From Octopus sinensis (taxonomy: Eukaryota): 64,000 nucleotides of DNA. How positions within the stretch are numbered: position 1 is the stretch's first letter; each line of letters begins with the position of its first letter. The stretch spans positions 60,946,001 through 61,010,000 of the forward strand of contig NC_043004.1 in NCBI RefSeq assembly GCF_006345805.1, given 5' to 3'. Below the pieces are notes generated by a model, which had not been told where the DNA came from, did no database searches, and was given only the letters and a program-made list of their open reading frames with translations. Below, piece by piece: positions 6,060 to 63,248 of the stretch. A program made the translations under genes and the position numbers.

Positions 6060-6293
6060 AATTCCCTTCCGGTCATTGAAAATGTGACGGCGTGTGTACC
6101 GTTGGCGAATGTTTTCCTCCGTCTTCCCTTCGTTGGATCTTTCCTTTTCCTATGTTTCTGACGAAGAGCTCCGCTCGAAACTTTAAACCCTCCTTCTTTC
6201 CTTCTTTCCTGAGCGTCCAATAATACTATACTTGTTCCACGTCCTCGCGTTGTTGTGTTTTCTCTTTGTGTTTTCATGTTTGGATTAACTATA
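6060..6293 (+). mobile_element. Penelope-like element 3' end / pLTR fragment
   Basis: Pyrimidine-rich tail with a minimal hammerhead at 6154-6188. A related degenerate copy lies on the minus strand near 59168-59340. Confidence 0.55.
6154..6188 (+). ncRNA. Minimal type I hammerhead ribozyme (stem III degenerate)
   Basis: gttt-CTGACGA-agagc tcc gctc-GAAA-cttt-aaac: stem I gttt/aaac, stem II gagc/gctc. Confidence 0.6.
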
Positions 6294-13569: not shown

Positions 13570-13615
<46 letters not shown>

Positions 13616-14225
13616 CAATAATAATTCTCTAAACGAGATATAAACAGTAACTGCTCCATAACATAAGGGACATCAGCCATCTGAATGTGGCTAGGGACAG
13701 GGCAGGGTGGTGGGGGTGTTACTGATGCATTTAGCCCCAGGCGATCATCAACGTCACCAGGAGGGCTGACATCACGGTGTCCTATAGCCTGCAAAGGGAG
13801 ATCATTCCCCGAAGAAGCGGATGCCGGCATCCGCTTCTTCGGGGAATGATCTCCCTTTGCAGGCTAGAGGACACCGTGATGGTGTCAGCCCTCCTGGTGA
13901 CGTTGATGATCGCCTGGGGCTAAATGCATCAGTAACACCCCCACCACCCTGCCCTGTCCTAGCCACATTCAGTGGCTGATGTCCCTTATGTTATATATAT
14001 ATGCATATGATGTGTGTGCGCGAGTGTCTGTGTTTGTCCCCCACCGCCGCTTTACAACTGGTGTTGATGTGTATATGTTTCCGTAACTTAGTGGTTCGGA
14101 AAAAGATACCGATAGAATAAGTACCAGGTTTAACAAAGAAAAGAAAAAGCAATGTGACCGATTCATTCAACTAAAACATTCAGGGCGGTGCCCCAGCATG
14201 ACCGCAGTCTGTTGATTGAAATAGA
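13403..14225 (+). mobile_element. SINE family B, split by the palindromic insertion at 13615-13994
   Basis: The 5' part (13403-13568) and 3' part (~14010-14225) match the uninterrupted copy at 14908-15335. Confidence 0.7.
13615..13994. mobile_element. GC-rich palindromic insertion (~168-bp arms) in (TA)n
   Basis: Near-perfect inverted repeat 13658-13994 centred on gccggc (13823-13828), with no spacer. The left arm extends ~43 bp further. Confidence 0.85.
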
Positions 14226-16372: not shown

Positions 16373-16775
16373 TGTAACTTTAAAATATATAAGCGAAAGT
16401 GTGTATGCCTCGAAATGTAGGTCATTGTTTTACGCTAGAAATTTTACATAAGCGTACATCATTTATTGAAGGAGACGGTTATAGGTTATTGAATTTTTGT
16501 TCTGATACGCTATGTATCTTTTTAGAAAATTTATAATAATGGATAGTTATACAAATTGCAAGAATCATTGGAATAAATTATTGATTTAAGAAAAACAAAA
16601 CAAAAAGCTATTTAAGATAATTATGCAAATTAGGAGAGCATTTTTTAACAAAGCATGTTTACTAAAGCAATGAAAAATTGCAAAATGTTATTATATATTC
16701 CATATATATATATTTAATCAATTAATTTATTAAATAATTAAATAATTAACTAAATTTATAATTATTATTATTCAG

Positions 16776-16936
16776 ACGCATGAGTGGCTGTGGTAAGTAG
16801 CTTGATTATCAACCACATGGTTCCGGGTTCAGTCCCACTGCGTGGCACCTTGGGCAACTGTCTTCTGCTATAGCCTCGGGCCGACCAAAGCTTTGTGAGT
16901 GGATTTGGTAGACGGAAACTGAAAGAAGTCCGTCGT
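16776..16936 (+). mobile_element. SINE family B, 5' part
   Basis: Matches 5255-5406. Confidence 0.8.
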
Positions 16937-16959
16937 ATATATGTATATTATATATATGC

Positions 16960-17193: not shown

Positions 17194-17368
17194 TATATAC
17201 ATATATACGGCGGGTTTCTTTCAGTTTCCGTCTTCCACATCCACTCAAGGCTTTGGTCAGCCCGAGACTATAGTAGAAGACACTTGCCCAAGGTTCCACG
17301 CAGTGGGACTGAACCCGGAACCATGTGGTTGGTAAGCAAGCTACTTACCACACAGCTACTCCTACGCC
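16960..17368 (-). mobile_element. SINE family B, full length
   Basis: Reverse complement of 14908-15335. Confidence 0.82.
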
Positions 17369-17372
17369 TTAA

Positions 17373-17491
17373 TGCTTGCAGCACCTAGGCCCCCCAAGTG
17401 GTCACCCATCTAAGTACTAACTAGGCTCGATGTTGCTTAACTTCTGTGATCGGACAAGAACCGGTGCTTTCAACGTGATATGGCCGTAAGC
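17373..17491 (-). pseudogene. 5S rRNA copy (probable pseudogene), 119 nt
   Basis: Reverse complement reads gcttacggccatatcacgttgaaagcaccggttcttgtccgatcacagaagttaagcaac...ttagtacttagatgggtgacc...ggtgctgcaagca. Canonical 5S landmarks with several substitutions; solitary copy with no T-run terminator. Confidence 0.9.
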
Positions 17492-32728: not shown

Positions 32729-34556
<1,828 letters not shown>

Positions 34557-34651
34557 GGAGGTGCAATGGCCCAGTGGTTAGAGCAGCGGACTCGCCGTCG
34601 TAGGGTCGTGGTTTCGATTTCCAGACCGGGCGTTGTGAGTCTTTATTGAGC
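34557..34651 (+). mobile_element. SINE family A head (truncated)
   Basis: Matches 2735-2830. Confidence 0.7.
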
Positions 34652-38917: not shown

Positions 38918-39774
38918 AACACACACACATACGTAACAAATAGACTGTGTACCAGGCCTACAAAGAAATAATTACTGGCTGGATTCGTTCGACTAAAGTT
39001 CTTCCAGGTGGTGCCCCAGCATGGCCGGCCGCAGTCTAATGGCAGAGACAAGTAGAAGAAAGACGATAAAAGATAAGAGACATACATGTAGACGAATAGT
39101 GACTGTGTGGCAAGTAATTTGCTTACCAACCAAACGGGTCAGTGTTCAGTACTGCGAGGCACTTTGAGCAGGTGTCTTCTACTTTAACCTTGGGATGATT
39201 GAAATCCTGTGAGTGGATTTGGTAGACAGAATGGGAAAGAAGCCAATCGTGTATGTCGTGTGTGTGTGTGTGTGTGTGTTTGTGTGTGTGTACGTGTGTG
39301 CGTGACCCACCACCACCACCTGGCAACCAGTGTACGTGTATTTACGTCTCCGTACGCTGGCGGTTCGGCTAAAGAAACAAATGGAGTAAGCGCCAGGCTT
39401 AAAAATTAAAAGTAATTACTGGGGTCTATTTAAGGTGGTGCTCCAGCACGGCCGCAGTTTAATGACTGCAGTAAGTGAAAGAATAAAAGATTTAAAGAAT
39501 ATACACATACACACACGCACGTGTACATTAACACATACAAGATTTTTGATGGAGTTTCTGCTAGAAGCGAAAGGAACCAAAAGTGAAGTAGTACATTGAT
39601 TTGATTAAGTAGTACATTCATTTAATTAAGTAGATGTTTATAATTTCATTTAATAAGTCTTGCGGCACTAGAATTGTTGCATTCCTCAAGAATTCATCAG
39701 AAATGTTACTTACGTTTTCTTTTTGTCCATAAAGATAAGAGAAACTCTGATTTATTTGCCCTTACCACTGTTCA

Positions 39775-46622: not shown

Positions 46623-47023
46623 TCAACTTGTGTGTCTGTGTGGGTATCTATGTGTCTGTGTGTTTAACTTCCCGGCACATCTCCTAGCCAACAAATCGTA
46701 GAACCACCAAAAATGGGTCACTTAAAGTTTAGGCGAATGAAAATTGTACTGCGCTATTTCTGTTCCGAAATTCATCTCGCAAGTGCAAAAATCGATAATG
46801 TGTTTGTTTAGGCCGTATTCCATGCATTGAATAGTGAACTTGACTCAATCAGCTGTTTGACGTGAACTGTGTTCACCACGCATGCAAGCATGCGTAAATT
46901 GCATGAAAAATAAAAAATCGAGATATAAAAACGAATCGCCGTAAACATTGTAGAAATTCGGCAAAGAAATGAATTTTCGGGATGTAGCCTGGAGGGTTTT
47001 TTCGTATTAATATATATATATCA

Positions 47024-47080
<57 letters not shown>

Positions 47081-47253
47081 TATATATATATATATATATA
47101 CCAATTAAGGACTGAACACGAAAAGTGGACAGTCAACATGCTAGATATAGACGTCAAATCGCCATTCACCACAAAAGATTATGTTCTCAGATCAAACTCA
47201 ACACAAAACCATAGCAATAAACAAGTGAAAAATATACGAAATAAAATAATTAC

Positions 47254-47318
47254 CCATGTACTAAATTAGTTTCAGCTGTTATTTTCCGCAAGGAAAACTG
47301 CAGCCATCATCAGCATGG
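47254..47318 (-). ncRNA. Type I hammerhead ribozyme (array A; also ~47760-47824 and ~48266-48329)
   Basis: Reverse complement of 48807-48871. Confidence 0.85.
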
Positions 47319-48806
47319 TCCGTTATAAATGTAATTTGCTGGACTAGATGCAAACACGATACCGAAATATCGCGTGCATGGAGTTCAGCCTATTACATTT
47401 GAATATATCTTTCAAATGCCTTTACTTTGGCGCGTTGGAGCCCGAGAAAACTAGCCTGCAGCTAATAATTAGCAGCAGTTAATTTATCGGTTAGAGAACA
47501 TATTTATTTATATAAAATTAATTAAGGTAGAAATTGATATTTATCAATTAAGACCAGTGGTCTAGCATATTAAAAAAGAATCCGAAGATTAAAATATTTA
47601 TATATACCAATTAAGGACTGAACACGAAAAGTGGACAGTCAACATGCTAGATATAGACGTCAAATCGCCATTCACCACAAAAGATTATGTTCTCAGATCA
47701 AACTCAACACAAAACCATAGCAATAAACAAGTGAAAAATATACGAAATAAAATAATTACCCATGTACTAAATTAGTTTCAGCTGTTATTTTCCGCAAGGA
47801 AAACTGCAGCCATCATCAGCATGGTCCGTTATAAATGTAATTTGCTGGACTAGATGCAAACACGATACCGAAATATCGCGTGCATGGAGTTCAGCCTATT
47901 ACATTTGAATATATCTTTCAAATGCCTTTACTTTGGCGCGTTGGAGCCCGAGAAAACTAGCCTGCAGCTAATAATTAGCAGCATTAATTTATCGGTTAGA
48001 GAACATATTTATTTATATAAAATTAATTAAGGGTAGAAATTGATATTTATCAATTAAGACCAGTGGTCTAGCATATTAAAAAAGAATCCGAAGATTAAAA
48101 TATTTATATATACCAATTAAGGACTGAACACGAAAAGTGGACAGTCAACATGCTAGATATAGACGTCAAATCGCCATTCACCACAAAAGATTATGTTCTC
48201 AGATCAAACTCAACACAAAACCATAGCAATAAACAAGTGAAAAATATACGAAATAAAATAATTACCCATGTACTAATTAGTTTCAGCTGTTATTTTCCGC
48301 AAGGAAAACTGCAGCCATCATCAGCATGGTCCGTTATAAATGTAATTTGCTGGACTAGATGCAAACACGATACCGAAATATCGCGTGCATGGAGTTCAGC
48401 CTATTACATTTGAATATATCTTTCAAATGCCTTTACTTTGGCGCGTGGAGCCCGAGAAAACTAGCCTGCAGCTAATAATTAGCAGCAGTTAATTTATCGG
48501 TTAGAGAACATATTTATTATATAAAATTAATTAAGGGTAGAAATTGATATTTATCAATTAAGACCAGTGGTCTAGCATATTAAAAAAGAATCCGAAGATT
48601 AAAATATTTATATATACCAATTAAGGACTGAACACGAAAAGTGGACAGTCAACATGCTAGATATAGACGTCAAATCGCCATTCACCACAAAAGATTATGT
48701 TCTCAGATCAAACTCAACACAAAACCATAGCAATAAACAAGTGAAAAATATACGATATTTCGGTATCGTGTTTGCATCTAGTCCAGCAAATTACATTTAT
48801 AACGGA

Positions 48807-48871
48807 CCATGCTGATGATGGCTGCAGTTTTCCTTGCGGAAAATAACAGCTGAAACTAATTTAGTACATGG
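48807..48871 (+). ncRNA. Type I hammerhead ribozyme (array A)
   Basis: ccatg-CTGATGA-tggctg cag ttttcc ttgc ggaaaa taa cagct-GAAA-cta att tag-TA-catgg. Complete core, three stems, GUA site (predicted cut after 48866). Confidence 0.88.
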
Positions 48872-49110
48872 GTAATTATTTTATTTCGTATATTTTTCAC
48901 TTGTTTATTGCTATGGTTTTGTGTTGAGTTTGATCTGAGAACATAATCTTTTGTGGTGAATGGCGATTTGACGTCTATATCTAGCATGTTGACTGTCCAC
49001 TTTTCGTGTTCAGTCCTTAATTGTATATATAAATATTTTAATCGTCGGATTCTTTTTTAATATGCTAGACCACTGGTCTTAATTGATAAATATCAATTTC
49101 TACCCTTAAT

Positions 49111-49151
<41 letters not shown>

Positions 49152-49159
<8 letters not shown>

Positions 49160-49788
49160 TAAATTAGAGACAAAACCACTATTAGGCAAATCATACAATG
49201 AAAAACTTAAGCCAATACATAAGATTATTTGATTTATATTATTTAAATATATAACAAAAGTTTTTCATTGTATGATTTGCCTAATAGTGGTTTTGTCTCT
49301 AATTTAATATAATATAGGAGGCGCAATGGCCCAGTGGTTAGGGCAGCGGACTCGCGGTCATAGGATCGCGGTTTCGATTCCCAGACCGGGCGTTGTGAGT
49401 GTTTATTGAGCGAAAACACCTAAAGCTCCACGAGGCTCCGGCAGGGGATGGTGGTGATCCCTGCTGTACTCTTTCACCACAACTTTCTCTCACTCTTACT
49501 TCCTGTTTCTGTTGTACCTGTATTTCAAAGGGCCGGCCTTGTCACTCTCTGTGTCACGCTGAATATCCCCGAGAACTACGTTAAGGGTACACGTGTCTGT
49601 GGAGTGTTCAGCCACTTACACGTTAATTTCACGAGCAGGCTGTTCAGTTGATCGGATCAACCGGAACCCTCGTCGTCGTAACCGACGGAGTGCTTCCAAT
49701 ATAATATAATATTTTACTATAAAATTGGATTCAATCCTAAATCTGATTTTTCCCTGTAAGTTTGGATTTATTCCCTAATATTTATTAT
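49152..49788. mobile_element. Inverted Penelope-like end pair, split by a SINE
   Basis: Arms 49157-49208 and 49258-49310 are reverse complements. Sequence shared with 51878-52145. Confidence 0.7.
49317..49697 (+). mobile_element. SINE family A, full length, with 11-bp TSD
   Basis: Flanked by aatataatata on both sides. Confidence 0.9.
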
Positions 49789-49791
49789 ATA

Positions 49792-49829
<38 letters not shown>

Positions 49830-49834
<5 letters not shown>

Positions 49835-50100
49835 GCATGATAGAAGAAGGCTAACTCTTCCTTCCGTAGAAGAACAAATTCAAATCGGACCATGTTAACA
49901 CTAAAAATTATTTACATCAAAAAGGTGCCTATTTTCTATGAAAATCCCTATTTTTTACGATGTTTTGACTGCTGTGTCGCCATTTTTCGGTGTATTTCAC
50001 TTAAAGAGAATAACAAGCTACATACTGCCTAATTTTTACTTTTCAAAAATTCCAATTCTAAAGGGTCTAAACAAACTGCAACGCCGGGCGATACTGCTAG
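49830..50100 (+). mobile_element. Helitron-like 3' end
   Basis: Ends gcaacgccgggcgatactgCTAG|t, identical to the terminus of 380-771, but with a different body. Confidence 0.6.
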
Positions 50101-50337
50101 TATGTATATATATATACATGTATATATATATATGCATATTCATGTATATATATGTATATATATATATATATAATATATATATATATAATATATATATATA
50201 TACATGTATGTTTATATGCATGTATATATTTATGTATATGTATATTTATATTCCTTCATATATATTTATACATACATATGTATATATATATTAGTATATT
50301 TATATATACTTGCATATACGTGTATATAATTCTGAAT

Positions 50338-50372
<35 letters not shown>

Positions 50373-51339
50373 GTAGTAGTAGAAGTAACAGAAAAGAGGA
50401 ATTTCGGTTGTCCCCCCGTGGTGGATTGTAATGTATATAAGAAATTAAAAATGGAAGATACGCACACTTACATGGTTATAGTATATTCCTCTTCGACCAA
50501 AGATAGTGCTCCAGCATGGCGGCAATCACATGACCGAACCTAGTAAAATAAAAAAAAAAACTATGCCATTTTCATCTCGAGCATAAATAAATAAAATAGC
50601 ATATACAGCTCACAAACAGATAAATAAACAAATTGATCTCTTTTCTACTTCAATTATTCCATATTTTTCTCTTATTAACCTACATACAGGCGGAGTTAAT
50701 TATATATGATAATACTTTTAATGCGTCTCCCGAGAAACAGTAAAAGTAATTATCCGATCAACGACGAGTATTACTGCTGGTAGTTAGCTAGAGATATACA
50801 CAAACACGCAAACATGCATACATTTGAATATACATGCAGGTATGCATATACATACACGAACGCACATAAAGCACAAATCAACATCTTTAAATAAATAACT
50901 CCACCCATCATGCATGATTATATGGGATATTACTGAGTCTCGTCTGTAAACTGAAATGTATATATACACACACAAGCATACATATATTTATGTGTGTGTG
51001 TGTGTGTGCACGTGCTTTCGTGTGCGTGCGTGCGAGCATGTGTGTGAAGGTCTCTGTGCGTGTATGAGTACGGATGTGTGTCAGAAGGTAAGATACGTTT
51101 ACGAGCACATGCCTTTATTAAACACAGATTTTGCTGCAATGTGTGATGGTAAATAACTTTGAAAGTTGATACCGACGTAACGATAGCATTAATATTTACC
51201 GGCAACATGGGGGAAGAAGCTCCGATGCTGTGTAATGTGTAATGTTGATGCGTATGTATATATGTATACACACACATAAGCGTAGGTATATATATCGCAC
51301 ACTGTATATATATAATATATATATATAATATATATATAT

Positions 51340-51377
<38 letters not shown>

Positions 51378-51456
51378 AGTTTGTGAGTGTGTGTATATAT
51401 ATATGTATACATACACACACACACACACACACATATATATTTACACACATACATAT

Positions 51457-51858
51457 AGGCGCATGAGTGGCTGTGTGGTAAATAGCTTGCTTACCAACCA
51501 CGTGGTTGCAGGTTCAGTCCTACTGCGTGGCATCTTGGGCAAATATCTTCTACTATACCCTCGGGCCGACCAAAGACTTGTGATTGGATTTGGTAGACGG
51601 AAACTGAAAGAGGCCGTTGCATATATGCATATATATATGTGTGTGTATGTGTGTTTGTGTGTCTGTGCTTGTCTCCCTAGCATTGCTTGACAACCGATGC
51701 TGGTGTGTTTATGACCCCGTCACCTACCAGTTCCGCAAAGTAACCGATAGAATAAGTACTAGGCTTCCAAAGAATAAGTCCTAGGGTCGATTTGCTCGAA
51801 TAAAAGGCAGTGCTCCAGCATAGCCGAAGTCAAATGACTGAAACAAGTAAAAGAGTAA
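51457..51858 (+). mobile_element. SINE family B, full length
   Basis: Matches 14908-15335. Confidence 0.82.
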
Positions 51859-51877
51859 ATATATATATATATATATA

Positions 51878-52145
51878 TAATAATAAATATTAGGGAATGA
51901 ATCCAAAATTACAGGGAAAAATCAGATTTTCATTGATAATTTTATTATTTTATTATTTTAAATTATATTAAATTATATTTTAAAATATTGATATTTTTAG
52001 ATCGAAAATCCACCTGAAGATTGTCGGTAGCAGACATGAAACAATTGTTGTGGCGGTTTATTTAATTTATATTAAAATTTTATGTATTGATTAAGTCTTT
52101 TCTTGTTTGGTTTTAAAATAGTGGTTTTGTCTCGAATTATATTAT
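51878..52145. mobile_element. Penelope-like end pair (inverted) in (TA)n
   Basis: 51880-51930 is the reverse complement of ~49740-49788; 52080-52140 matches 49258-49305; contains a hammerhead. Confidence 0.7.
52010..52053 (+). ncRNA. Type I hammerhead ribozyme
   Basis: ccac-CTGAAGA-t tgtc ggtagca gaca t-GAAA-caattg-TT-gtgg; palindromic stem III, GUU site. Confidence 0.78.
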
Positions 52146-52420
52146 ATATATATATATATAAGTTTAACAATTAAGGATAATCTCTTAATAAGGGATCTTA
52201 ACAAGAAATTATCGGGTAGCTAGCGTGAAAACCTCATAAAAGAAAAGAATCCGAAAATAATTTTTTTCTTTTGAACAAATTAATTATATCTATATTGTAT
52301 AGAGGGCATTATTACACATAAATGCCTCACACTAGGAGGGACAAAGTCATTACTACCAAAAATTATACTAATCATACCCAAATGCAGTTTTTCAAAGCAA
52401 GACATTTAAAAATGAATTAT

Positions 52421-52475
52421 GTTCTGTATCACCGTGATTTCACATACACTTGCGTCTAATGATCGTCAGCAGAAC
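52421..52475 (-). ncRNA. Type I hammerhead ribozyme (array B left arm; also 52900-52955 and 53379-53434)
   Basis: Reverse complement of 53550-53605. Confidence 0.85.
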
Positions 52476-53549
52476 TGATTCTGAATACATCATAAATAAA
52501 CTACCAACCTTACGTAGCGGAGACGAACAGACAACTGCTCACTCCGGCCAAGCACATGGAATGTTTATAAATCATATATCCGGTAAATGGCGGGCTTTTT
52601 ACGAACTGCATGTCGGGTAATGAAAAGTATTTCGGAATAAGTTTAACAATTAAGGATAATCTCTTAATAAGGGATCTTAACAAGAAATTATCGGGTAGCT
52701 AGCGTGAAAACCTCATAAAAGAAAAGAATCCGAAAATAATTTTTTTCTTTTGAACAAATTAATTATATCTATATTGTATAGAGGGCATTATTACACATAA
52801 ATGCCTCACACTAGGAGGGACAAAGTCATTACTACCAAAAATTATACTAATCATACCCAAATGCAGTTTTTCAAAGCAAGACATTTAAAAATGAATTATG
52901 TTCTGTATCACCGTGATTTCACATACAACTTGCGTCTAATGATCGTCAGCAGAACTGATTCTGAATACATCATAAATAAACTACCAACCTTACGTAGCGG
53001 AGACGAACAGACAACTGCTCACTCCGGCCAAGCACATGGAATGTTTATAAATCATATATCCGGTAAATGGCGGGCTTTTTACGAACTGCATGTCGGGTAA
53101 TGAAAAGTATTTCGGAATAAGTTTAACAATTAAGGATAATCTCTTAATAGGGATCTTAACAAGAAATTATCGGGTAGCTAGCGTGAAAACCTCATAAAAG
53201 AAAAGAATCCGAAAATAATTTTTTTCTTTTGAACAAATTAATTATATCTATATTGTATAGAGGGCATTATTACACATAAATGCCTCACACTAGGAGGGAC
53301 AAAGTCATTACTACCAAAAATTATACTAATCATACCCAAATGCAGTTTTTCAAAGCAAGACATTTAAAAATGAATTATGTTCTGTATCACCGTGATTTCA
53401 CATACAACTTGCGTCTAATGATCGTCAGCAGAACTGATTCTGAATACATCATAAATAAACTACCAACCTTACGTAGCGGAGACGAACAGACAACTGCTCA
53501 CTCCGGCCAAGCACATGGAATGTTTATAAATTTTATGTATTCAGAATCA

Positions 53550-53605
53550 GTTCTGCTGACGATCATTAGACGCAAGTTGTATGTGAAATCACGGTGATAC
53601 AGAAC
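53550..53605 (+). ncRNA. Type I hammerhead ribozyme (array B right arm; also starting 54028, 54507, 54982, 55461, 55941, 56421, 56900)
   Basis: gttctg-CTGACGA-t cat tagac GCAA gttgt atg t-GAAA-tcac g gtga-TA-cagaac. Six-bp stem I, GNRA-capped stem II, self-complementary stem III, AUA site (predicted cut after 53599). Confidence 0.88.
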
Positions 53606-56600
53606 ATAATTCATTTTTAAATGTCTTGCTTTGAAAAACTGCATTTGGGTATGATTAGTATAATTTTTGGTAGTAATGACTTTGTCCCTCCTAGTGTGAG
53701 GCATTTATGTGTAATAATGCCCTCTATACAATATAGATATAATTATTTGTTCAAAAGAAAAAAATTATTTTCGGATTCTTTTCTTTTATGAGGTTTTCAC
53801 GCTAGCTACCCGATAATTCTTGTCAAGATCCCTTATTAAGAGATTATCCTTAATTGTTAAACTTATTCCGAAATACTTTTCATTACCCGACATGCAGTTC
53901 GTAAAAAGCCCGCCATTTACCGGATATATGATTTATAAACATTCCATGTGCTTGGCCGGAGTGAGCAGTTGTCTGTTCGTCTTCGCTACGTAAGGTTGGT
54001 AGTTTATTTATGATGTATTCAGAATCAGTTCTGCTGACGATCATTAGACGCAAGTTGTATGTGAAATCACGGTGATACAGAACATAATTCATTTTTAAAT
54101 GTCTTGCTTTGAAAAACTGCATTTGGGTATGATTAGTATAATTTTGGTAGTAATGACTCTGTCCCTCCTAGTGTGAGGCATTTATGTGTAATAATGCCCT
54201 CTATACAATATAGATATAATTAATTTGTTCAAAAGAAAAAAATTATTTTCGGATTCTTTTCTTTTATGAGGTTTTCACGCTAGCTACCCGATAATTTCTT
54301 GTTAAGATCCCTTATTAAGAGATTATCCTTAATTGTTAAACTTATTCCGAAATACTTTTCATTACCCGACATGCAGTTCGTAAAAAGCCCGCCATTTACC
54401 GGATATATGATTTATAAACATTCCATGTGCTTGGCCGGAGTGAGCAGTTGTCTGTTCGTCTCCGCTACGTAAGGTTGGTAGTTTATTTATGATGTATTCA
54501 GAATCAGTTCTGCTGACGATCATTAGACGCAAGTTGTATGTGAAATCACGGTGATACAGAACATAATTCATTTTTAATGTCTTGCTTTGAAAAACTGCAT
54601 TGGGTATGATTAGTATAATTTTTGGTAGTAATGACTTTGTCCCTCCTAGTGTGAGGCATTTATGTGTAATAATGCCCTCTATACAATATAGATATAATTA
54701 ATTGTTCAAAAGAAAAAAATTATTTTCGGATTCTTTTCTTTTATGAGGTTTTCACGCTAGCTACCCGATAATTTCTTGTTAAGATCCCTTATTAAGAGAT
54801 TATCCTTAATTGTAAACTTATTCCGAATACTTTTCATTACCCGACATGCAGTTCGTAAAAAGCCCGCCATTTACCGGATATATGATTTATAAACATTCCA
54901 TGTGCTTGGCCGGAGTGAGCAGTTGTCTGTTCGTCTCCGCTACGTAAGGTTGGTAGTTTATTTATGATGTATTCAGAATCAGTTCTGCTGACGATCATTA
55001 GACGCAAGTTGTATGTGAAATCACGGTGATACAGAACATAATTCATTTTTAAATGTCTTGCTTTGAAAAACTGCATTGGGTATGATTAGTATAATTTTTG
55101 GTAGTAATGACTTTGTCCCTCCTAGTGTGAGGCATTTATGTGTAATAATGCCCTCTATACAATATAGATATAATTAATTTGTTCAAAAGAAAAAAATTAT
55201 TTTCGGATTCTTTTCTTTTATGAGGTTTTCACGCTAGCTACCCGATAATTTCTTGTTAAGATCCCTTATTAAGAGATTATCCTTAATTGTTAAACTTATC
55301 CCGAAATACTTTTCATTACCCGACATGCAGTTCGTAAAAAGCCCGCCATTTACCGGATATATGATTTATAAACATTCCATGTGCTTGGCCGGAGTGAGCA
55401 GTTGTCTGTTCGTCTCCGCTACGTAAGGTTGGTAGTTTATTTATGATGTATTCAGAATCAGTTCTGCTGACGATCATTAGACGCAAGTTGTATGTGAAAT
55501 CACGGTGATACAGAACATAATTCATTTTTAAATGTCTTGCTTTGAAAAACTGCATTTGGGTATGATTAGTATAATTTTTGGTAGTAATGACTTTGTCCCT
55601 CCTAGTGTGAGGCATTTATGTGTAATAATGCCCTCTATACAATATAGATATAATTAATTTGTTCAAAAGAAAAAAATTATTTTCGGATTCTTTTCTTTTA
55701 TGAGGTTTTCACGCTAGCTACCCGATAATTTCTTGTTAAGATCCCTTATTAAGAGATTATCCTTAATTGTTAAACTTATTCCGAAATACTTTTCATTACC
55801 CGACATGCAGTTCGTAAAAAGCCCGCCATTTACCGGATATATGATTTATAAACATTCCATGTGCTTGGCCGGAGTGAGCAGTTGTCTGTTCGTCTCCGCT
55901 ACGTAAGGTTGGTAGTTTATTTATGATGTATTCAGAATCAGTTCTGCTGACGATCATTAGACGCAAGTTGTATGTGAAATCACGGTGATACAGAACATAA
56001 TTCATTTTTAAATGTCTTGCTTTGAAAAACTGCATTTGGGTATGATTAGTATAATTTTTGGTAGTAATGACTTTGTCCCTCCTAGTGTGAGGCATTTATG
56101 TGTAATAATGCCCTCTATACAATATAGATATAATTAATTTGTTCAAAAGAAAAAAATTATTTTCGGATTCTTTTCTTTTATGAGGTTTTCACGCTAGCTA
56201 CCCGATAATTTCTTGTTAAGATCCCTTATTAAGAGATTATCCTTAATTGTTAAACTTATTCCGAAATACTTTTCATTACCCGACATGCAGTTCGTAAAAA
56301 GCCCGCCATTTACCGGATATATGATTTATAAACATTCCATGTGCTTGGCCGGAGTGAGCAGTTGTCTGTTCGTCTCCGCTACGTAAGGTTGGTAGTTTAT
56401 TTATGATGTATTCAGAATCAGTTCTGCTGACGATCATTAGACGCAAGTTGTATGTGAAATCACGGTGATACAGAACATAATTCATTTTTAATGTCTTGCT
56501 TTGAAAAACTGCATTTGGGTATGATTAGTATAATTTTTGGTAGTAATGACTTTGTCCCTCCTAGTGTGAGGCATTTATGTGTAATAATGCCCTCTATACA

Positions 56601-57088
56601 ATATAGATATAATTAATTTGTTCAAAAGAAAAAAATTATTTTCGGATTCTTTTCTTTTATGAGGTTTTCACGCTAGCTACCCGATAATTTCTTGTTAAGA
56701 TCCCTTATTAAGAGATTATCCTTAATTGTTAAACTTATTCCGAAATACTTTTCATTACCCGACATGCAGTTCGTAAAAAGCCCGCCATTTACCGGATATA
56801 TGATTTATAAACATTCCATGTGCTTGGCCGGAGTGAGCAGTTGTCTGTTCGTCTCCGCTACGTAAGGTTGGTAGTTTATTTATGATGTATTCAGAATCAG
56901 TTCTGCTGACGATCATTAGACGCAATTTGTATGTGAAATCACGGTGATACAGAACATAATTCATTTTTAAATGTCTTGCTTTGAAAAACTGCATTTGGGT
57001 ATGATTAGTATAATTTTTGGTAGTAATGACTTTGTCCCTCCTAGTGTGAGGCATTTATGTGTAATAATGCCCTCTATACAATATAGAT

Positions 57089-57140
<52 letters not shown>

Positions 57141-58821: not shown

Positions 58822-58824
<3 letters not shown>

Positions 58825-59113
58825 GGTCCCGGGTTGATCCGGGGTTAACACAGTAAGTAAGGTACTCAATACATAGCAGAGTAAAATTAATTTATTATAT
58901 AGAAGGAGCTTCTACAGGACTAGTACTGTTTCATTCAAGAGAATCTTCAGGAAGCTATTAAACAAGAATTGTATTAGCATTTATACATTTAGGCACTCCT
59001 TTAAACCTGCCTAATGTATAAATGCTAATACAATTCTTGTTTAATAGCTTCCTGAAGATTTCTCTTGAATGAAACAGTACTAGTCCTGTAGAAGCTCCTT
59101 CTATATAATAAAA
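58822..59113. mobile_element. Palindromic Penelope-like end insertion in (TA)n
   Basis: Arms ~58891-58995 and 59008-59113 with a 12-nt spacer; each arm has a hammerhead. Confidence 0.82.
59046..59096 (+). ncRNA. Type I hammerhead ribozyme (mirror copy at 58907-58956, minus)
   Basis: agcttc-CTGAAGA-tttc tctt gaat-GAAA-cag tactagtc ctg-TA-gaagct; GUA site. Confidence 0.85.
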
Positions 59114-59167: not shown

Positions 59168-59600
59168 CAGGAAGAATTCACAAAAAAAAAAAAAGACGAA
59201 GACAGGTGGTGTAGACAACAAACAGATCTATTAGTTTAACGCTTTCGAGCCTACGCTCTTCCACAGAAAGGAACACAGAAAAACAGGGAGAGAAAATAAG
59301 GAATTTGTAGTGGCTAGCGATCTATCATGGCGAAAGCCGGACAGAGGAATCCCACAGGAGAGCTAGGCAGAAGGGGAGATAATAAAGTAGTGGTGATCCC
59401 AAAACAAAGGTGTGCGTGCGTGTGTATAAGTGTACTTGTATGTGCGTGTGGAAGAGGGCTGGTGACCTTGACGTGTGTAGGTGTTTGGATAATGGTGTGG
59501 TAGCTGGGAAGTGGCCAGTGCTAGTCTGCGCCAGTTGGTGTGATGTGATGTGCTGTTATATATGTATGTATATAAATCAGTAACAATTATGGACAGTATA
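59168..59600 (-). mobile_element. Penelope-like 3' fragment with degenerate hammerhead
   Basis: Minus strand reads ctgtggaagagcgtaggctcgaaa, the same layout as 6158-6180; abuts (TA)n. Confidence 0.5.
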
Positions 59601-60427: not shown

Positions 60428-61557
60428 ATATATAATATATATATATATTATATATATATACGCATGTCTTACTATATAGTCTTATTGCAAATGGCATATG
60501 TATATATATATATATATATATAATTATATAACACCAGACCCATAATATACACGTAGATCTTAATATATATATGTCTAATTACAAATGGTGTAATGTATAT
60601 AATATATATATATATATATATACGTGTGTGTGTGGTGTGGTGTGTGTATGTGTGGTCAACATATTTCTATTGATCAGCATACATATACATAATCTGTCGC
60701 CCACACTAGCAATAGGAAATCTAGTGTATAAAACTGATATGAATGAATTAAGATAAAGGGTTGAAAGAGGAACTGTTGCAAAGTAAAACATTTTCAAAAG
60801 AACGGTTTCTTTTTATAATTTTTGTCAAAAAGGAAAGGTAAAATTTCAGGTTCCAAGAAAAGTTTTCTTGCCAAATGTTCTTGGAACGAAAAGGTTAACG
60901 GAAGAAAAAATATAAACCTTAGGCAGGCGTTGGCTTTGAAGTTTGACTATATATATATATAAAAAATTAGATTAAATTTATTTCGTCTGACTAAGCTGTT
61001 ATACAAAGCCTGTTCGTCTGTTTGCCATCGTGTCTCTGTGTGTATATATGTGTGTACACACCTATATAAATACAAATCAAAATAAACAACAGGATATCAA
61101 GACGTGATGCCGTACGACCGTTTCAAGCGGCTCCATTTAATTGAACAATGCAATCATTACATCAATTTAAATGCAGAGCTATCCTCAGCTGCACAAATAA
61201 ATAAATAGAATTTTAATCAATCGGACACAATTATATAATTTTACACAAATTCTCTAATAGTGCAAGAAGATAGAAAAATCCATGTTCTCGCTATTGTAGT
61301 ACTGTTGCCCTCCATTCTAAACAGACGCAATTCTCTCGTGTTAGATTTCGTAGTTAGTGAAAAGACTAATATATTAAAAATGAACCACAGTCCTTTACAA
61401 GCTATGAACCCACCAAACTTCATACATTTCTTGGAAGTGTAGTATATTCTTAGCTACAATAGTGACAACATGGATTTTTTATCTTCTTGCTCTATTAGAG
61501 TATTTGAATAAAATTATATTAATGTGTCCGACTGATTAAAATTCTATTTATCTATTT

Positions 61558-61645
61558 GTGCAGCTGAGGATAGCCTTGAATTTAAATTGCTGTAATGATT
61601 GCATTATTCAATTAAATGGAGACGCTCGAAACGGTCGTACTGCAT
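61558..61645 (+). ncRNA. Type I hammerhead ribozyme in pLTR, long stem II
   Basis: gtgcag-CTGAGGA-tagc...(taatg attg catta hairpin)...gctc-GAAA-cggtcg-TA-ctgcat; diverged mirror copy at ~61108-61195. Confidence 0.8.
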
Positions 61646-61820
61646 TATTACTTGATATGCTGTTGCTCATTTTGATTTTATTCACCTTACTTTGCGCTGT
61701 ACGGATAATGCCGCACTGACTTGGTGCTTCAGCTTAAGAACCTGATTCGACTGAATTTCAATAATTTCTTAACTCGTCAACCAAACCATTACAACGTTTC
61801 TGGTACTTAGCTTCATCAGG

Positions 61821-62445
61821 ATGGACAGAGTAAATATGGAATTTTCTCAGAAGGACATCCCCTTCATAATAAGGATACCTATATGTGGCTGCTAATCCAT
61901 AGGACAAATGAGTTTGTTCGGAGGATGAGGTGGATCGCTTATCATCATGAGGCTAAGAAGAAGAAAAGAAACCTAGAAACATATGATAAGAATTATAAGA
62001 TATTCAAAAGTAGAAAAAATCCTTCACCTAGCCCACTACTGGATAATTTTGAAAAAGACTTATTTGAACTAATAGCCAATGTAAAATTCAAGGAACACCC
62101 ACTTAGAAAAAACTTGCATCTGAGGATCTCTCCTCTACCTATACTGGTAATAGAGCCATACCTAATAATCAAGTCACAATTTTGGGAGGCCTTGAAAGAG
62201 TAGGTAGATACGCCTGAAGTCTGAAAATAAAGACTTGATCTCGTATAATGTTCCCTCCAACTGTGCCATAACCAGAAACATATATAGGAAATTTATGACA
62301 ATTTTAGAAAAACCTTCCCTGCGTCCCATAGATATAATATAATTTTTTCCCGTAAGACAGTTAGAATCTCGTATTATATCCTCCACAATATGGGTACCAT
62401 CATAGCAAGGCTAAATAGAAAGAATATGAAATTAGCAAGAGGTGG

Positions 62446-62486
<41 letters not shown>

Positions 62487-63248
62487 GTGTCAACACTAAC
62501 TTAAGCCCCTACAATGAGAATAATAATGATGAGGTGGGAAATAGAAGCAGCATCTAATATATACATTATAAACTGCAACTCCGAGGTCTATACTAGCACA
62601 GAGATTACTGACAAGCCTGTTGATGCTGAGATGAATTTGAATGGTACTACAGTTGAAGGAAGGATAGATAATAACAGGTATGAAAATAACACATTCGATA
62701 GTATTAGTAGGATTAATAATAATAATAGTGGTATTAATAATAATAATGATGATATATGTATCAATAGTATTAATAGTAGTAATACTCCTGGTTGCAATTG
62801 TAGAGTTAAATCCCAGTGTCCGTTATTAGGCCCATGTCTAATCCAAAACGTAATTTATAAATGCACAATCACAACTGTGGCAGGTAACCTTATATATATA
62901 TATATTGGATGTTCGATAAATATGGAATAACGTATCAATAGCCAGTTTACATAATTTAACCTCAAACATAAAGCCAATTGTACGTCCTTATCTAGCAAGA
63001 TTTGGAAACTGAAGAAAAGCGGAATCGAATTTAGCCTTAAATTGGACATAATAAGGAAAGCGCAGCCTTATAGAGATAGTCGATACGGGCGTGAGCTGTG
63101 CTCTATGGAAACTTATGAGATTTTTAAGTATAGGGACAAGAGTAATCTGATTAGTAATAGATTATATCTAAGGGTATCATGCGAACACAGGGTCACCCGT
63201 ACGTTTAAATGTATTTTCGAAATTAGCGTTTATAGGTGCTATACTTGA
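61821..63248 (+). pseudogene. Degenerate PLE ORF (N-terminal domain, linker, GIY-YIG endonuclease)
   Basis: In successive frames: MEFSQKDIP / LIHRTNEFVRRMRWIAY...FKSRKNP...LDNFEKDLFELIANVKF; FPASHRYNIIFSRKTVRISY; CNCRVKSQCPLLGPCLIQNVIYKC...YIG; TSLSSKIWKLK; IIRKAQPY...LC...E...CEH. Confidence 0.82.

Follow-up and report, generated by a model that had tools for sequence, protein, structure and literature searches.

As described in the portions of the literature drawn on here, two groups of animal elements come close to the arrays reported below. Non-LTR (long terminal repeat) retrozymes accumulate as circles in other animals (PMC7229834), and copying of a circle into complementary DNA (cDNA) of more than unit length has already been proposed (in 2014, PMC4209133; in 2020, PMC7229834; also PMC7761336). 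The enzyme that mobilizes retrozymes in animals, and the role of the circle as its template, are stated to be open questions (PMC7229834, PMC7761336, bioRxiv 10.64898/2026.07.22.740005), and descent of retrozymes from the pseudo-LTRs (pLTRs) of Penelope-like elements (PLEs) is proposed (bioRxiv 10.64898/2026.07.22.740005). The insertions that PLEs themselves produce comprise a copy in inverted orientation, truncated at its 5' end, and, at one end only, a tail of 30-40 nucleotides (nt); microsatellites or TA targets are favoured (PMC8557442, PMC3846280). The purified enzyme of an Anolis PLE (Poseidon PAc) nicks and extends both target strands, and two internal start sites on its RNA bound the tail (PMC11167929). 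Here we describe two tandem arrays, A and B, in a 64,000-nt stretch of Octopus sinensis DNA (NC_043004.1, positions 60,946,001 to 61,010,000; the window, in whose own numbering all coordinates are given), which is AT-rich, microsatellite-rich and animal-like in character. By their sequence A and B have the make-up of non-LTR retrozymes, cleavage and circularity being predicted; they would be new families, and the anatomy of their insertion points to Penelope machinery.

The unit of array A (47093-49121) measures 506 nt and that of array B (52158-57091) 480 nt. Two arms make up each array (2/2); they are joined head to head and their ribozyme strands face outward, the second copy being inverted and 5'-truncated; this pairing is an addition to the preliminary description of the stretch. 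In monomer coordinates running from cut to cut, the left arm of A (47093..48755, minus strand, 3.3 units) leads from position 20 at the centre to position 166 (site 1, at 47093-47101) and the right arm (48753..49121, plus strand, 0.73 unit) from 393 to 256 (site 2, at 49115-49121), the two arms overlapping by 3 nt. In B, the left arm (52158..53531, minus strand, 2.9 units) leads from 334 to 269 (site 2, at 52158) and the right arm (53535..57091, plus strand, 7.4 units) from 416 to 142 (site 1, at 57091); between them stand three extra T (53532..53534), untemplated or the product of a 3-nt slip. The monomer segment between the two end sites is the tail, 90 nt in A (167-256; 47509..47598, minus strand) and 127 nt in B (143-269; 56133..56259, plus strand). 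The 9-nt motif TTCGGATTC is common to both tails and occurs nowhere else in the window. Homology between A and B is marginal, its score being reached by 9 of 200 local shuffles, and they are therefore handled as separate families. Site 1 terminates the long arm and site 2 the short arm in each array, and the motif CCTTAATT stands 10-11 nt before three of the four ends. The GC content of the arrays is 32-34%. A single stop-to-stop frame of at least 110 amino acids overlaps them, on the non-ribozyme strand of one unit, and among the open reading frames (ORFs) checked none in the arrays encodes a reverse transcriptase (RT) with a GIY-YIG endonuclease.

The hammerhead cut site is used by none of the four outer ends and by none of the four arm starts, a small sample. 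The preliminary description had already placed the ends at different phases of the unit and away from the cut, had given the B junctions exactly, and had noted that the two ends of A fall in different internal TATATA runs; all of this holds. For the permuted ends, the best interpretation is that they correspond to PLE initiation at sites 1 and 2, and we are rather confident that two-site priming of the PLE kind produced them. The fuller proposal, in which A and B, as non-LTR retrozymes, would owe their insertion to a Penelope-like RT-endonuclease acting in trans, with a ligated monomeric circle as the likeliest template, is in our judgement evenly balanced. On this proposal the enzyme would nick both strands of a (TA)n target, and the two target ends would each prime cDNA synthesis on the RNA, at one or other of two internal start sites that are fixed. 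These sites would flank the 90-127-nt tail, 142-269 nt downstream of the hammerhead cut, and short TA matches would assist the priming without choosing the site. Each RT would then cross one to eight cut sites and halt at an unrelated phase, and the two cDNAs would be joined head to head through 3-nt microhomology or a short insert.

A (TA)n target is present at all four ends (47010..47100 to the left of A, 49116-49159, about 52140-52157 and 57081-57128), and because the target is (TA)n a target duplication is unreadable. The perfect matches of the monomer to (TA)n at the ends measure 8 nt (A left, 47093-47100), 6 nt (A right), 3 nt (B left) and 5 nt (B right); the 4-6 nt given earlier was roughly right, although two of the four values lie outside it. 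Matches as long occur at 0.2%, 1.0%, 6.7% and 0.8% of monomer positions, respectively, so that three of the four ends are biased towards TA beyond what chance would give. It was proposed in the preliminary description that the target DNA anneals to any UA-rich patch of a circle, from which rolling-circle RT proceeds, so that ends should be scattered over the TA patches of the monomer. The TA runs of at least 5 nt at three of the four ends are what such priming would give. The longest TA patch of B (6 nt, position 332) serves neither B end, however, and one of the sites that is used matches by 3 nt only.

The ends of other copies bear on the same question. One B monomer was compared with contigs of four public sequencing runs (X1, X2, X4 and X15) among 24, and the ends considered are the best-supported 24 of 198 rows of loose ends, in which contigs are not insertion counts. 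TA-joined ends occupy four of these rows and fall at positions 142 and 269 only, the ends of array B itself: position 142 leads into (TA)n in 37 contigs of X1, 17 of X2 and 3 of X15, and position 269 in 11 contigs of X1 alone. The flanks that follow position 142 in the run contigs are unlike the array B locus, and other loci therefore use this site; the AT run after position 269 is 18 nt long in the X1 contigs versus 15 nt at the B locus, which is weaker evidence of other loci. Family B is dispersed, with 790-2584 contigs and other flanks in each of three probable DNA runs. Within these rows the ends recur at two positions where scatter had been expected, and annealing to any patch is not supported; a short neighbouring family, elements D and G2 described below, likewise reuses both of its own end sites in two insertions. 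Were the 22 TA patches of at least 3 nt in the B monomer used equally, both ends would match the two recurrent sites by chance once in 231, or once in 21 for the seven best patches. The longest patch is absent from the best 24 rows, and site 1 of another neighbour, element C, matches (TA)n by 1 nt. Minor sites may lie beyond those 24 rows, and priming at any patch is nevertheless, in our view, very improbable. The depth of contigs per bin drops past both sites in most runs; being no copy number, it is unused here. A 25-nt pattern from B gave no match in metagenome contigs.

The cut-site junctions are exact in all 15 cases (A and B together), in keeping with the earlier suggestion that the RT ran through several of them. 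Across nine full and two partial B units, drawn from the left and the right arm, a single allele is found at each of the 14 substitution sites polymorphic within family B in the run contigs, and the shared haplotype includes the minority allele at position 176 (15-41% by depth in the family). At position 213, the probability that ten units picked independently from the family all have one allele is 0.013 in X1, 0.002 in X2 and 0.002 in X4, on rough depth-weighted frequencies. Template jumping between independently cut monomers was also considered and is made unlikely by the exact junctions together with the shared haplotype. The dominant family-B variant of X15 differs from array B near the ribozyme, at positions 441, 448, 454, 461, 7, 8 and 176, and a subfamily other than that of array B may be the one expressed, X15 being possibly an RNA run.

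Clonal units of this kind could also have arisen in DNA, if a short PLE-type insertion came first and its arms were then amplified by unequal crossing-over, slippage or gene conversion. This is the standard model of satellite birth, favoured for retrozymes in bioRxiv 10.64898/2026.07.22.740005, and the adjacent units BR3 and BR4 do have one homopolymer deletion in common. The nine full B units vary at 15 columns, of which 13 are singletons; ten of the variants are one-base deletions typical of read error, and the two shared columns are homopolymer deletions. No divergence gradient is seen across the B units on comparison, a stepwise gradient being the pattern that the preliminary description took to tell against copying from a circle. 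Both features run counter to amplification in DNA, which would moreover require three of the four arms to expand separately, on both sides of an inversion and from seeds already longer than one unit. We regard it as improbable.

The inverted arrangement itself could have a simpler origin, if the second arm were a fold-back, self-primed copy of the first cDNA or if the inversion were an artefact of assembly or long reads. Self-priming has been proposed for PLE palindromes (PMC3846280), the centres of C and of another element, E, are nearly perfect palindromes, and the central junction of B is not listed in the four runs compared. A fold-back copy cannot pass the end of the first arm, yet the arm ending at site 2 carries the tail, which lies beyond site 1; nor does the left arm contain mirror images of the BR1 and BR2 variants. 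The two flanks show no relation to each other, both ends are found again in short-read contigs, and elements of less than 300 nt repeat the same anatomy. Fold-back copying or artefact is thus the explanation to which we give least credence.

The ribozyme bears on the choice between templates. A type I hammerhead pattern is present in every unit that bears a cut site (15/15; four in A and 11 in B), and the scan gave 19 matches in the window against none in each of 20 shuffled windows; an Rfam search of the window returned no hammerhead at the gathering score, and the type I assignment is one by pattern match. In A, the ribozyme on the plus strand lies at 48812..48866 (core to cut site), and the other copies, on the minus strand, cut at 48271, 47765 and 47259. 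The B ribozyme at 55947..55990 (plus strand) is one of 11 copies, with predicted cuts at 53599, 54077, 54556, 55031, 55510, 55990, 56470 and 56949 on the plus strand and at 53385, 52906 and 52427 on the minus strand. The short sequence of helix III is a palindrome. It does not fold into a hairpin by itself, and its self-duplex has a predicted energy of -11.9 kcal/mol in B and -6.7 kcal/mol in A. This model predicts dimer-dependent cleavage for both arrays, a type described for animal ribozymes, in which multimers are cut and monomer circles are spared (PMC4209133). The usual G10.1-C11.1 pair is missing from both ribozymes. Adjacent positions of helix II are altered in the outermost full units of the two B arms, a substitution and a deletion at monomer positions 457 and 458 (BR7, at 56926, and BL2, at 52449); the changes differ and may be chance or read error, or possibly a lesion of a shared template.

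From start sites that are both downstream of the cut, RT on a cut linear monomer would yield at most 142-269 nt of cDNA. The template would therefore be a circle, a multimer left uncut, or monomers linked by a succession of jumps. Since a dimer-type ribozyme would cut multimers and spare circles, a ligated monomeric circle is the likeliest of these. The circle is favoured, too, because the arrays are clonal, because no arm starts at the cut and because circular RNAs are found in other animal retrozymes; clonality of the units needs a step from monomer to multimer somewhere. Given two-site priming, we lean moderately towards the circle. The preliminary description had arrived at a circular template from the permuted ends. 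Its conclusion remains the likelier one on this other evidence, but the ends are not diagnostic, because in vitro a PLE also starts at two fixed internal sites when its RNA is linear and uncleaved (PMC11167929), and the end signature does not by itself show a circle.

The same two-site priming could instead have taken place on linear read-through RNA, transcribed from a homogeneous donor array and left uncleaved, an alternative that needs no circle and that we hold to be possible though unlikely. Many animal hammerheads are slow (PMC7229834; bioRxiv 10.64898/2026.07.22.740005), the absence of the G10.1-C11.1 pair from both ribozymes suits such a transcript, and so does a contig of X15 (possibly RNA, although it may be DNA) that leads from site 1 through TA into a unique flank. 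Read-through would require eight consecutive intact sites, and a simple model gives this a probability of 0.61, 0.14 or 0.004 at 6%, 22% or 50% cleavage, respectively; with so wide a range, the decision between multimer and circle hinges on the cleavage rate. Partly cut multimers, for their part, should start arms at the cut site, where none of the four is found. Furthermore, linear copying neither lengthens arrays nor spreads a new haplotype to every unit, and the monomer-to-multimer step would still be required. A contig of X15 that bridges the cut site is neutral: contigs cannot separate a circle, an uncleaved multimer and DNA, and junction reads cannot decide between circle and multimer because ligated and uncut junctions are identical in sequence.

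Several points weigh against the proposal of a PLE enzyme with a circular template. RNA that is linear and uncleaved serves the purified Anolis PLE as template, with no requirement for ribozyme activity (PMC11167929), eight of nine Xenopus dimer constructs failed to cleave in vitro (bioRxiv 10.64898/2026.07.22.740005), and linear multimers are reported in axolotl (PMC7229834). A homogeneous donor array, if copied, gives clonal offspring too. The circular monomers fold with z-scores of -7.4 and -4.9 against 30 shuffles, a measure that cannot tell a circle from a linear monomer. The recurrence data cover family B alone, within the 24 rows and the counting by contigs given above; site 269 is seen in one run only, X4 has no TA-tailed row among its six rows shown, one run may be the source of the window, and a diverged relative shares B positions 85-142 and may inflate the count for site 1. 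Neither monomer matches the PLE remnant described below, and no match to the pLTR of an autonomous partner for A or B was found inside the window.

A more specific arrangement may be put forward tentatively, and it is unlikely to be right in every part. One PLE dimer would sit on the tail of a single circular RNA of 480-500 nt, and two RTs would start on either side of it and roll round the same circle. Each would be primed by one target end, and strand displacement would give two concatemeric arms of one haplotype. If this were true, rolling-circle reverse transcription in an animal would have left its direct footprints in the genome as these arrays, and the tail, with the TTCGGATTC common to both of them, would be the cis element recruiting the PLE enzyme to retrozymes. 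The idea of a circle is itself not new; what the arrays add is that the template is narrowed to a circle or an uncut multimer.

Short elements with two outward arms lie close to the arrays and give evidence on the pattern of ends that is independent of the run contigs. C, D and G2 are inserted in (TA)n and are not tandem, and one arm of each is longer by about 70-80 nt. D (49150..49780) and G2 (51880..52140) form one family, and both end sites are common to the two insertions. The left arm of D ends at site 1; its right arm is broken by a SINE-like (short interspersed nuclear element) repeat (49317-49697, with a duplication of about 11 nt) and then continues for about 80 nt to site 2. G2 adjoins the left end of B and contains a hammerhead-like motif (52014-52049); its site-2 arm breaks off in the vicinity of site 1, a picture that two RTs colliding on one RNA might give. 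B sits in the TA run at the end of G2, and one TA run is common to the right end of A and to D. C (58822..59112) has a hammerhead in each arm and ends 22 nt and about 92 nt beyond the cut. Element E (13610-13994) is a near-perfect palindrome without spacer that ends in TA on either side and is extended by 43 nt on one of them; it may be a PLE-type fold-back or a miniature inverted-repeat transposable element and is not counted among the two-armed elements. More hammerhead-like cores occur in short AT-flanked fragments at 6158-6200, 39624-39700 and 59168-59360, the last recognized by eye only.

A candidate for a decayed PLE lies 4 kb from array B (61063..63218, plus strand), with an inverted terminal copy (about 61063-61299, minus strand), a hammerhead (61564-61639) and a broken ORF. 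The ORF has an Asn-rich stretch followed by a GIY-YIG-like C-terminus, and the RT core is missing. An exhaustive search with the C-terminal part gave 1740 protein matches at E up to 0.001; GIY-YIG matches fall below the Pfam cut-off in 3 of 10 matched proteins scanned, and one long matched protein has weak Pfam matches to both RT and GIY-YIG. Pfam and two word-based searches failed to place the ORF itself. On these grounds the region fits a PLE that would have lost its RT core. The Asn-rich stretch before the endonuclease part recalls the N-rich inserts of Adineta Penelope elements (PMC3846280). Elsewhere in the window, a copy of 5S rRNA (17373-17491, minus strand) stands beside one arm of an inverted repeat (16770-16948 / 17195-17373). 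Three near-identical 580-nt tandem blocks of SINE-like repeat and microsatellite (33105-34637) may be a local duplication or an effect of assembly.

In LINE-1 twin priming, both ends of the target prime on the RNA and the resulting arms are joined in inverted orientation by microhomology. A and B resemble its products in having inverted arms joined by microhomology. They differ in that the start of one arm and the end of the other lie 147-270 nt apart on the monomer, gaps that rule out adjacency of the LINE-1 kind; only the short element G2 comes near to such adjacency. Plant LTR retrozymes and viroid-like circles are described as hammerhead-processed circular RNAs of a size similar to the A and B units. 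The plant elements have a type III ribozyme, LTRs with a primer-binding site and Gypsy machinery, whereas A and B have a type I ribozyme; none of these plant features was seen here, no search aimed at them having been made.

The likeness to the animal non-LTR retrozymes of coral, mussel and axolotl is closer, as these too are tandem arrays of non-coding units, each unit having its type I hammerhead (PMC7229834). A and B also share with them a GC content below 50%, a well-folded monomer and many polymorphic copies (PMC7229834; bioRxiv 10.64898/2026.07.22.740005). Their units of 480 and 506 nt exceed the 150-450 nt first reported and fall within the 51-972 nt of a 2026 survey (bioRxiv 10.64898/2026.07.22.740005). 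In the literature searched, no retrozyme array is described as having two head-to-head arms, a tail and start sites that are fixed, although subscription papers or supplements may hold one.

In their insertion A and B are most like endonuclease-bearing PLEs such as PAc and Adineta Penelope, with an inverted truncated copy, a tail at one end only and an AT-rich or (TA)n target. As in PLEs, RT would start downstream of a dimer-type hammerhead, and the cDNA crosses the cut site. Unlike PLEs, they have no ORF, their tails measure 90 and 127 nt rather than 30-40 nt, and both arms can be multimers. The starts are TA-like in A and B (matches of 3-8 nt), whereas PAc is described as starting at an AC-rich site without homology to the target. 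Inverted arms, a tail and two fixed start sites downstream of the cut would thus amount to a Penelope signature on a retrozyme, and this is mechanistic, rather than phylogenetic, evidence for a link between the two.

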